Assembly: GCF_016903815.1 (NCBI RefSeq) | Contig: NZ_CP069973.1 | Source: Escherichia coli | GTDB lineage: Bacteria > Pseudomonadota > Gammaproteobacteria > Enterobacterales > Enterobacteriaceae | Length of the DNA: 64,000 nt | Strand: one strand, 5' to 3' | Part shown: positions 35,489-40,943 of the stretch, piece after piece | How positions within the stretch are numbered: the first letter of the stretch is position 1 | Layout: the number at the start of each line of letters is the position of its first letter | Position numbers and translations under genes: made by a program | The notes under the pieces: model-generated | What the model was told of the DNA's origin: nothing | Seen by the model: only the letters and a program-made list of their open reading frames with translations | The model's database searches: none

Positions 35489-36997
<1,509 letters not shown>

Positions 36998-37067
36998 GGG
37001 ACTTAGCCTGCGGCGGTTTTGTTTGGCTTCAGCAGCGGGTTGCGCTCCCTTAATGTGCCTCGCCATA

Positions 37068-37105
37068 TAAATTGAATGGTGCAGGGGGCGGCCAATCGCC
37101 GCCAC
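37068..37105. repeat. GC-rich perfect inverted repeat (15-bp stem) downstream of putP, first of several hairpins
   Basis: ggtgcagggggcggc-caatc-gccgccaccccctgcacc; more hairpins at about 37216-37252. Confidence 0.6.
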
Positions 37106-37574
37106 CCCCTGCACCCCGGGCTCTGGCGAACAAAATCGCCGCTGCGCGGTACCTTCAGCTTATCCCCTTCGGCTACCGGGTCGGGCGCGAGGTAATGTCC
37201 TGTAAGACGCGCCCTCAGCCCACATCCATGTGGGCTGCCCCGGCCTTCGGGGAACGCTTCAGCGACTTTGACGCCACCAACACCCGAGCTGTTATTATGT
37301 TCCGGGCAAAAAGTTAGATTTGATAATCGCGGATGGACGAAATTGCTTGATACACCCGCTTATCAGTTTTACATGGAAGCTCTGATGCATTGAGTCTGGA
37401 CAGTTTTGTCGGCTGGATAAGGCGTTTACGCGGCATCTGGCAAGAACACATGGCTCGTTGTAAACAATCCCATCTTTGTACCTGGAATAATCGTTTATAT
37501 CCCCTGGCATTACCTCTCTTTGTTTACATTCCAACATCATTTTATAAACATTCCGCTTGTATTTTTCTTTGCCG

Positions 37575-37593
37575 TAATGATAATCGCTATCAC
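37575..37593. promoter_or_regulatory. Fur box upstream of efeU
   Basis: TAATGATAATCGCTATCAC resembles the GATAATGATAATCATTATC Fur consensus, about 60 nt upstream of efeU ATG. Confidence 0.65.
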
Positions 37594-37650
37594 TGCGATT
37601 TACTTTTCTTTGCATAGATTGACTCAGAAAAACGTTTAAGGGTGGGTGGC

Positions 37651-38481
37651 ATGTTTGTTCCATTTCTCATTATGTTGCGCGAAGGACTTGAAGCCGCGCT
37701 GATTGTCAGTTTGATCGCCAGCTATCTTAAGCGTACCCAGCGAGGCCGATGGATTGGTGTGATGTGGATTGGCGTGTTGCTTGCCGCTGCGTTGTGCCTG
37801 GGCTTGGGTATCTTCATTAACGAAACCACCGGCGAATTTCCGCAAAAAGAACAGGAACTGTTTGAAGGTATCGTGGCGGTGATCGCCGTGGTGATCCTTA
37901 CCTGGATGGTTTTCTGGATGCGCAAAGTGTCGCGCAACGTCAAAGTACAACTGGAGCAGGCAGTCGATAGCGCATTGCAGCGTGGAAATCATCATGGCTG
38001 GGCGCTGGTGATGATGGTCTTTTTTGCCGTTGCAAGGGAGGGGCTGGAGTCGGTCTTTTTCCTGCTGGCGGCGTTTCAACAAGATGTCGGGATCTGGCCG
38101 CCGCTGGGTGCAATGCTCGGTCTTGCTACAGCCGTGGTGCTCGGCTTCCTGCTCTACTGGGGCGGTATTCGCCTCAATCTTGGTGCATTTTTTAAATGGA
38201 CCAGCCTGTTTATTCTCTTCGTCGCCGCAGGGCTGGCGGCTGGTGCCATTCGCGCATTTCATGAAGCCGGATTGTGGAACCACTTTCAGGAAATCGCCTT
38301 CGATATGAGTGCGGTGCTCTCAACTCACTCGCTGTTTGGCACGCTGATGGAAGGGATTTTTGGCTATCAGGAAGCGCCAAGTGTCAGCGAAGTCGCCGTC
38401 TGGTTTATTTATCTCATCCCGGCGCTGGTGGCATTTGCTCTGCCACCACGCGCAGGGGCGACAGCGTCTCGCTCTGCGTAG
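37651..38481 (+). CDS. efeU: Ferrous iron permease EfeU (FTR1/OFeT family), intact
   Basis: Uninterrupted 276-aa ORF with two REGLE motifs (MLREGLEAAL, AREGLESVFF). Confidence 0.93.
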   Translation: MFVPFLIMLREGLEAALIVSLIASYLKRTQRGRWIGVMWIGVLLAAALCLGLGIFINETTGEFPQKEQELFEGIVAVIAVVILTWMVFWMRKVSRNVKVQLEQAVDSALQRGNHHGWALVMMVFFAVAREGLESVFFLLAAFQQDVGIWPPLGAMLGLATAVVLGFLLYWGGIRLNLGAFFKWTSLFILFVAAGLAAGAIRAFHEAGLWNHFQEIAFDMSAVLSTHSLFGTLMEGIFGYQEAPSVSEVAVWFIYLIPALVAFALPPRAGATASRSA

Positions 38482-39671: not shown

Positions 39672-40943
39672 ATGCAGTATGAAGATGAAAACGGCGTGAA
39701 TGAACCGTCACGCCGACGTTTACTGAAAGGGATTGGTGCGCTGGCGCTGGCGGGAAGTTGTCCGGTCGCTCATGCACAAAAAACGCAAAGTGCACCGGGC
39801 ACGCTTTCACCGGATGCACGCAATGAGAAACAGCCGTTTTATGGTGAGCATCAGGCAGGGATCCTGACGCCACAACAGGCCGCAATGATGCTGGTGGCGT
39901 TTGATGTGCTTGCCAGCGATAAAGCCGATCTTGAAAGGTTGTTTCGCTTGTTGACTCAGCGTTTTGCTTTTCTGACTCAGGGCGGAGCGGCACCAGAAAC
40001 GCCAAATCCGCGCCTGCCTCCACTCGATTCCGGCATTCTTGGCGGCTACATTGCGTCCGATAATCTCACCATAACGTTATCGGTGGGCCACTCATTGTTT
40101 GATGAGCGGTTTGGCCTTACACCGCAGATGCCGAAAAAGTTGCAGAAAATGACGCGTTTCCCCAACGACTCGCTGGATGCGGCGTTATGTCATGGTGATG
40201 TGTTGCTACAAATTTGCGCCAACACCCAGGACACGGTGATCCATGCGCTGCGCGATATCATCAAACACACGCCGGATTTGCTCAGCGTGCGCTGGAAGCG
40301 GGAAGGGTTTATTTCCGATCATGCAGCGCGTAGTAAAGGCAAAGAGACGCCGATTAATTTGCTGGGTTTCAAAGACGGCACTGCCAATCCCGATAGCCAG
40401 AATGATAAGTTGATGCAACAAGTGGTGTGGGTGACGGCAGATCAGCAGGAGCCTGCGTGGACAATCGGCGGCAGCTACCAGGCGGTGCGGTTGATTCAGT
40501 TTCGGGTGGAGTTTTGGGACAGAACGCCACTGAAAGAACAGCAGACGATTTTTGGTCGCGACAAACAAACCGGTGCGCCGCTGGGAATGCAGCATGAGCA
40601 TGATGTTCCCGATTACGCCAGCGATCCGGAGGGGAAGGTGATTGCGCTGGACAGCCATATCCGGCTGGCGAATCCCCGCACGCCAGAGAGTGAGTCCAGC
40701 CTGATGCTGCGTCGTGGCTACAGTTATTCGTTGGGCGTCACCAACTCCGGACAACTGGATATGGGGCTACTGTTTGTCTGCTATCAACACGATCTGGAAA
40801 AAGGCTTCCTGACAGTACAAAAAAGGCTCAATGGCGAAGCGCTGGAGGAATACGTTAAACCTATCGGCGGCGGTTATTTTTTTTCGCTGCCGGGAGTGAA
40901 GGACGCGAACGATTATCTCGGAAGCGCGTTATTGCGGGTTTAA
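39672..40943 (+). CDS. efeB: Tat-exported DyP-type peroxidase / deferrochelatase EfeB
   Basis: 423 aa with twin-arginine motif [11 protein letters not shown]. Confidence 0.95.

Follow-up and report, generated by a model that had tools for sequence, protein, structure and literature searches.

A decayed TwoAYGGAY-type RNA module, probably spread by an IS50-type MITE, in the putP-efeU spacer of Escherichia coli

Introduction

The spacer between putP, which ends at position 36997, and efeU, which is intact in this strain and starts at position 37642, contains a cluster of GC-rich hairpins. What this cluster represents, and on which strand it should be read, are the questions raised by this locus of E. 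coli. In the original prediction, made from the nucleotide letters, it was regarded as a possible member of an intergenic repeat family, as a pause or stabiliser element following putP, or as a small structured RNA. Here, the cluster is considered in the context of a 64,000-nucleotide stretch of contig NZ_CP069973.1 (assembly GCF_016903815.1), referred to below as the window.

The results point to the hairpins being helices of a repeat copy rather than a putP terminator or a locus-specific regulator, with the functional strand opposite to the one assumed earlier. The explanation favoured here, which we hold to be probable, is that an IS50-type MITE spread TwoAYGGAY-type modules and that the cluster is one such copy, now solo and decayed, with no essential role at this place. 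The TwoAYGGAY family has been without a known function or origin since 2010, and the present work describes a GC-rich enterobacterial branch of it that occurs in nearly every E. coli genome.

Hairpins of the putP-efeU spacer

The spacer at 37000-37640 is 100% identical to that of E. coli strain 7/2. All four inverted repeats proposed for it are present (Table 1), and the claim that they form stable hairpins agrees with the predicted folding of a 271-nt segment, which reaches -121.1 kcal/mol (z -4.07) on the plus strand and -137.5 kcal/mol (z -5.57) on the minus strand, with none of 200 dinucleotide shuffles as good in either case. The 15-bp stem, which had been described as perfect, is 14/15 (93%) complementary on the plus strand, where it contains one C.A mismatch; on the minus strand it is fully paired, the mismatch position being a G.U wobble there. 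The CCCCG-GCCTT-CGGGG hairpin is present as an inverted repeat but is not conserved as such in other copies, and its bases pair at long range in the family consensus structure. The extent of 37060-37260 given originally was too narrow, as the feature covers about 37029-37299 according to an nhmmer profile and to blastn against the 688-bp composite unit described below. A scan of 37000-37300 gave no terminator-like site on the plus strand, in agreement with the earlier remark that a T-run terminator is absent, and the element has no match to the REP-derived naRNA4 model, in agreement with its reported dissimilarity to REP units.

Table 1. Coordinates of the repeat copy and its parts in the window
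Feature	Coordinates	Strand	Basis or description
Whole repeat copy (solo 'left module')	37029-37299	minus	nhmmer family profile, E 3e-77
TwoAYGGAY-like core domain, long P1 closing stem	37124-37276	minus	consensus structure, covariation
Helix H1	37263-37276 with 37124-37138	minus	
Helix H2	37249-37262 with 37153-37167	minus	
Helix H3/H4	37239-37245 with 37171-37180	minus	
Small hairpin H8	37139-37149	minus	
Hairpin 1	37216-37237	minus	reads CAGCCCACA-UGGA-UGUGGGCUG; 10-bp perfect inverted repeat
Hairpin 2	37183-37214	minus	reads GGGCGCG...UUACAGGACAUUA...CGCGCCC
GC-rich hairpin H9	37078-37115	minus	3' of core in RNA sense
Orphan 3' arm (GGAGCGC) of helix H10	37042-37048	minus	alignment to K-12 and other copies
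Inverted repeat 1	37078-37092/37101-37115		
Inverted repeat 2	37184-37190/37209-37215		
Inverted repeat 3	37216-37225/37228-37237		10 bp, perfect
Inverted repeat 4	37239-37243/37249-37253		

Two coding candidates in this region were rejected. An 81-codon ORF with a TTG start (37072-37317, plus strand) overlaps the repeat and is not a gene, as its copies differ by 1-nt indels, and the frames that follow a minus-strand AAGGAG comprise just 3-10 codons and are not conserved. In some RefSeq genomes, the match to the repeat region carries the annotation of a 'hypothetical protein'.

Dispersal of the repeat

In a BLAST search, a match to the putP-efeU spacer was obtained in 5,425 of 5,426 complete E. 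coli genomes. The original prediction had proposed to look for further copies in the genome, and these exist: the part of the window at 37081-37293 recurs at other loci, giving a median of 3-4 places per E. coli genome, with a single copy in the 64-kb window (nhmmer family profile, 37299 to 37029). Further Escherichia loci are lysO-aqpZ, dusC-yohP and alx-sstT, and K-12 carries the repeat at three places, near positions 915,000, 1,080,860 and 2,229,100 of its chromosome. It is also found in Kluyvera, Enterobacter, Pseudocitrobacter and Klebsiella, where it reaches 12 places in one chromosome-size record of K. pneumoniae. The phage collection gave no match, and the matches labelled as plasmid come mostly from large records, several of them chromosome-sized, all typed as non-mobilizable. 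The element is non-coding, occupies at least four Escherichia loci and is polymorphic in orientation at two of them, and its recurrence within single genomes of E. coli and other Enterobacteriaceae bears out the suggestion of another intergenic repeat family.

The orientation of the repeat relative to neighbouring genes is mixed across its loci, even between strains at two of these, which fits insertions of a mobile element better than a cis-acting signal. The opposite-strand cores at lysO-aqpZ and dusC-yohP are 90.6% and 92.6% identical, respectively, and the outer flanks are collinear. A simple inversion was considered for both loci and discarded, since the sequence adjoining the inverted core is not homologous; the loci look instead like hot spots at which the element was repeatedly inserted or replaced. 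The strains concerned are K-12 (L010, 3840-4370) and O157 (L002, 2290-2780) at lysO-aqpZ, and K-12 (L011, 4740-5460) and E. coli E69 (L030, 1170-1840) at dusC-yohP, where L numbers are our designations of the loci and contigs compared.

Two further arrangements were observed in the course of this survey. In K. pneumoniae (L006), module copies at 1495-1784 and 1932-2221 form a tandem pair with a spacing of 437 bp, located between pcaC and the gene for a mechanosensitive channel; they have an identical left flank, and the arrangement looks like a local duplication. Copies of the element are also found in L044, a 583-bp contig labelled Bacillus sp. (0.7x coverage), and in L050, labelled Chryseobacterium sp. 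In the former, a putP-side flank is joined to one of lysO type, and the contig resembles a chimeric contaminant.

Conserved RNA structure and its strand

Structural conservation in relatives, the absence of which was to have counted against the original prediction, is evident from an alignment of 34 distinct copies from six genera, for which RNAalifold predicts a covarying structure of 70 pairs in 10 helices. Standard pairs occupy 99.0% of the cells, a share that falls to about 40% if the 3' partners are shifted by 1-3 columns. Changes on both sides affect 20 pairs (124 cells), a level that none of 500 shuffles reaches. In the minus-strand sense, the alignment contains 108 G:U cells, with two of the G:U pairs being invariant, versus 5 A:C cells; neither these cells nor the covarying ones are independent events, as the former represent about 13 pairs with G:U variants and about 5 with A:C.

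Rfam matches the left module in the minus-strand sense only. Because the excess of G:U over A:C agrees with the direction of these matches, the RNA sense is assigned to the minus strand of the window, and it is thus antisense to both putP and efeU. The idea of a small structured RNA was therefore right as to kind, given the covariation-supported structure and the relatives that reach the TwoAYGGAY gathering score, while the strand differs from the expected one, being antisense to putP.

From 5' to 3' on the minus strand, the module consists of a long closing stem, a GC-rich hairpin and a long-loop helix, and two hairpins whose loops contain GGA lie within the closing stem. In addition to these two loop GGA motifs, a conserved AGGGAUAAG and AAGGGAG are present. 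The closing stem, formed by H1 and H2 (23 pairs, the long P1 stem), is paired in 97-99% of cases across the 34 copies, shows compensatory changes in 9 of its pairs and is intact in the window copy. The tip of the hairpin 1 stem and its loop together read A-UGGA-U, an AYGGAY motif, and pair 76-85 of this hairpin is A-U in 19 sequences and G-C in 15. Compensatory changes also occur in helices 6/7 of hairpin 2 and in helix 9, where 4 pairs are changed on both sides and which counts 15 pairs on the minus strand, one of them G.U, compared with 14/15 on the plus strand. Helix 10 covaries between GCGCUCC/GGAGCGC and GCGCUCU/AGAGCGC; the conserved left block GTTGCGCTCC...TATAAA was examined as a promoter and dropped, as GCGCUCC/GGAGCGC covaries as this helix. 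Between genera, the sequence is 82-90% conserved and carries compensatory changes, which indicates that the structure has been under selection somewhere in the repeat family. Some copies of the repeat may thus be functional.

Relationship to the TwoAYGGAY family

In 2010, Weinberg et al. reported TwoAYGGAY (Rfam RF01731, with a gathering score of 43 bits) as probably an RNA and as not cis-regulatory; its two AYGGAY loops are enclosed by a P1 stem that is often very long (PMC2864571). It was found in human gut samples, Clostridiales and gamma-Proteobacteria, and the gamma-proteobacterial examples (Psychromonas ingrahamii) were multi-copy with conserved flanks (PMC2864571). Among the alignment rows listed there, no enterobacterial hairpin strings are present.

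Core homologues in other copies of the repeat match RF01731 over model positions 1-168. The Kluyvera copy L024 scores 54.2 bits over the full model, the right module of L014 (see below) 49.2 bits and L037 42.6 bits, and the lysO copy of K-12 has a sub-threshold score of 30.6 bits (E 0.005). For the window copy, a 291-nt Rfam search gave no TwoAYGGAY match at E <= 10, and wide and narrow searches returned only noise; the covariance-model scan that had been proposed for this region was therefore informative through its relatives and not through the copy itself. Membership of the window copy follows from its sequence homology to copies that match the model. The first terminal loop of this copy (minus strand of 37216-37237) has AYGGAY, and AYGGAY is not present in the second, UUACAGGACAUUA. 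The corresponding loop is ACAGGGAU in K-12 copies, and in Kluyvera L024 and Enterobacteriaceae L038 it is ACAUGGAUGU, which is an AYGGAY sequence. Since the window copy lacks both the second motif and a model score, it would best be classed as a degenerate homologue in a GC-rich, transposon-borne TwoAYGGAY variant and not as a canonical member.

The enterobacterial copies share with TwoAYGGAY the two adjacent GGA-loop hairpins in a very long closing stem, as well as the many copies per genome with no consistent position relative to genes. They differ in being GC-rich, in having two extra 3' helices (H9 and H10) outside the Rfam model, and in a second loop that is usually ACAGGGAY and not AYGGAY. 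In the literature that was searched, the enterobacterial branch, the paired divergent modules with Tn5-type ends and the targeting by IS110-family elements described below were not found.

A composite unit with IS50-like ends

In Kluyvera, Pseudocitrobacter and another Enterobacteriaceae genome, the module forms the left part (positions 70-323) of a non-coding unit of 688 bp; blastn aligns window positions 37039-37279 to element positions 71-323 of this unit in L037 at 82.6% identity. A plus-strand match to the TwoAYGGAY core is found in the right part of the unit (positions 377-587). Like the left module, this part comprises a closing stem, a GC hairpin and a long-loop helix, with loops that read AUGGAU and CAGGA; it also shows compensatory changes and G:U pairs of its own. 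The two modules diverge from the centre of the unit, where a reading by eye of the central spacer revealed only weak promoter hexamers.

The ends of the unit are inverted repeats of about 25 bp (CTGTCTCTTATACACAAATTCGTGG), and their first 19 bases are identical at 16-18 of 19 positions to the IS50 outside end, as checked against records annotated as IS50R. Relatives with IS50-like ends are L026, L037, L025, L059 and L060, and a scan of metagenomes yielded three more complete 688-bp units. L060 is flanked by a perfect 9-bp target duplication, ATAAGGGAG, and L037 by one that agrees at 7/9 positions. The IS50-like ends and the 9-bp duplication, together with the absence of coding capacity, mark the 688-bp unit as a predicted MITE of the IS50 group. 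It resembles other IS50/Tn5-group MITEs (IS4 family) in these features, which are those of the relatives; it differs in that its interior consists of two divergent covarying RNA modules and not of a deleted transposase gene, and in that the window copy and all other E. coli copies are without ends. A review of MITEs makes no mention of such an IS50-type element.

An autonomous partner was sought among plasmids with a 70-nt query composed of the inverted end and the adjacent sequence, which gave no match and hence no such partner from Enterobacteriaceae. Among the metagenomes scanned was an IS50-like insertion sequence that shares the 21-nt end and encodes a transposase of Tn5 type (PF14706 and PF01609); this transposase-bearing element was seen on a marine contig only. 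The element occupies positions 48-1521 of a TARA marine scaffold (L056); its left end resembles an outside end and its right end (CTGTCTCTTGATCACAAGT) an inside end. An unrelated element of 422 bp (L057, 952-1373) is bounded by the end sequence of L056, which implies that this type of end is common to several non-autonomous elements.

The flanks of the complete units show a recurrent setting. The units at L060 4284-4970, L037 529-1216 and L059 1964-2651 lie inside boxC-like GGGAG/AGGGAGAGGG palindromes, and the flanks of L037 and L059 are CTATGGGAG/CTTGGGGAG.

The repeat itself also receives insertions. In Kluyvera genomosp. 3 (L025, 722-2106), a 1,385-bp IS110-family element encoding a 316-aa transposase (PF01548 and PF02371) is inserted precisely into the hairpin 2 loop (UUUACAGGGA^UGUUACC), and such an element occupies the identical position in three copies (L025, L026 and L027). 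Judged from these junctions, the repeat appears to be a specific target for the IS110 family, as REP is for other IS110-family elements.

Decay of the copy at putP-efeU

No E. coli genome holds at least 80% of the composite unit; just positions of about 50-357 occur. Neither inverted ends nor a target duplication was found around any E. coli copy, and near the window copy no IS50 end was detected, the sole weak match in the window being 12/19 at position 39763. Because the E. coli copies share the sequence of composite positions 50-357, we infer that they descend from the composite unit, and they would be solo left-half remnants that are no longer mobile.

Two lesions set the window copy apart from the family consensus: a deletion of 12 nt (GCAGGGAGCGCG) beside 37080/37081, by which the 5' partner of H10 was lost, and a deletion of a single G in the second GGA loop, which leaves hairpin 2 one G short of the family ACAGGGAY loop. 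It retains 63 of the 70 consensus pairs. Three alleles occur at putP-efeU: a full one, seen in other E. coli genomes; the one with the 12-nt deletion, as in the window, found in 351 genomes at >= 99% identity; and one with a 124-bp deletion that removes both GGA hairpins and is typical of K-12. At least 80% of the spacer is kept in just 947 of 5,425 genomes. A scan of either strand found no sigma-70-like promoter, a search that a weak promoter or one of another type could escape, and a single terminator-like site, on the minus strand at 37115-37078. As a chance result of the 12-nt deletion in the window copy, a U-rich tail follows the GC hairpin on this strand.

Possible roles of the module

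The findings are consistent with the following scenario. A composite unit of 688 bp could have been moved by a Tn5-like transposase supplied in trans, E. coli would have been left with end-less left-half remnants of it, and the stems noticed originally are the RNA helices of a TwoAYGGAY-class module. The copy at putP-efeU, being damaged, probably does nothing essential: we infer from its sequence that it is without function at this place, and a harmless relic is the most likely description of it.

A different reading, which we consider unlikely, is that this copy or its family acts as a functional minus-strand sRNA whose GGA-loop hairpins bind and titrate the global regulator CsrA in the manner of CsrB and CsrC, though on a smaller scale than these. 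Several observations speak for it, since the structure is under selection across genera, hairpin 1 shows ACAUGGAUGU on the minus strand, and the GC hairpin with its U-rich tail is terminator-like in this allele. Moreover, hairpin 2 of K-12 shows UUACAGGGAUGU, which agrees at 11/12 positions with the CsrA SELEX consensus, reportedly determined by Dubey et al. in 2005 as RUACARGGAUGU. TwoAYGGAY and CsrB belong to one Rfam clan (CL00106), and binding of CsrA by TwoAYGGAY RNAs was put forward by Gardner and Eldai (PMC4333381). The likeness to CsrB/CsrC/Rsm is thus one of clan and of loop GGA motifs close to the SELEX consensus. It ends where the number of sites is concerned, as there are two loop GGA sites here versus about 18-22 in CsrB, which would accommodate approximately one CsrA dimer versus roughly nine. 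Furthermore, neither a BarA/UvrY-type promoter nor another was found here, the element is multi-copy and transposon-borne, the window copy has lost helix 10 as well as a G from its second GGA loop, and most E. coli have lost both hairpins at putP-efeU by deletion. Still less probable is that the plus-strand hairpins act on putP mRNA in a REP-like way, as a stabiliser of its 3' end, a pause or a terminator. The position would suit it, as the element begins 32 nt past the putP stop codon; most helices consist of Watson-Crick pairs, which allows them to form on the plus strand too (-121 kcal/mol, z -4.1), and stable 3' hairpins can block exonucleases. Against this stand the lack of a T-run and the imperfect stem on the plus strand, the G:U evidence for the strand opposite putP, the occurrence of either orientation to neighbours at other loci, and the loss of 124 bp of the element from K-12-type strains, a loss of the core that extends to most E. 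coli; the pause or stabiliser named in the original prediction accordingly finds no specific support. A role at the level of DNA, as a protein-binding or cruciform site, a recombination hot spot or a mobile-element target, has the least to recommend it and is very improbable. The opposite orientations at two loci in different strains and the IS110-family insertions at one position of three Kluyvera copies would fit such a role, but the asymmetry between G:U and A:C is unexpected for a double-stranded DNA palindrome, the non-homologous sequence beside the inverted cores indicates separate insertions and not a flip, and being the target of an insertion sequence gives the element no function by itself.

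The preferred reading, that of a decayed module copy, leaves room for a broader idea concerning the family, which we consider unlikely: TwoAYGGAY modules could be working decoys for CsrA, or for another protein that binds GGA loops, scattered by MITEs in enterobacteria. Binding of CsrA by the GGA loops is a hypothesis only. If it were true, copies in sense orientation would place neighbouring genes, or the CsrA pool, under new control, with those in the dusC 3' UTR (K-12), upstream of lysO (O157) and in the alx-sstT spacer as candidates, and the copy at putP-efeU would be a member whose activity is weak or was lost recently.

Other repeats and neighbouring features

The element has in common with REP/BIME, ERIC/IRU, boxC and RSA that it is intergenic, palindromic, dispersed and variable between strains. 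In sequence it is presumably unlike the consensus of ERIC and of boxC. From REP/BIME it differs by having no sequence similarity; the only match to naRNA4 lies at 37411-37447, between the repeat and efeU, where a degenerate REP unit (GGCTGGATAAGGCGTTTACGCGGCATCTGGCAA) has a sub-threshold score of 27.2 bits (E 0.021). RSA, also called BEE95, measures 150-152 bp and has 6 copies in K-12 (PMC5172473). It could be the same family as the present repeat, because the core is about 153 nt long; the three places in K-12 versus the six RSA copies speak against it. Current K-12 records have nothing annotated at the repeat sites.

Two minor features flank the repeat copy. A weak 6-bp stem-loop, GCTAAG-GGA-CTTAGC, at 36993-37024 overlaps the putP stop codon and is followed after about 10 nt by a T-rich stretch; the terminator scan did not flag it. 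On the other side, efeU (37642-38481) is an intact ORF of 279 codons here and is also annotated as intact in strain 7/2, and in K-12 it is a frameshifted pseudogene.
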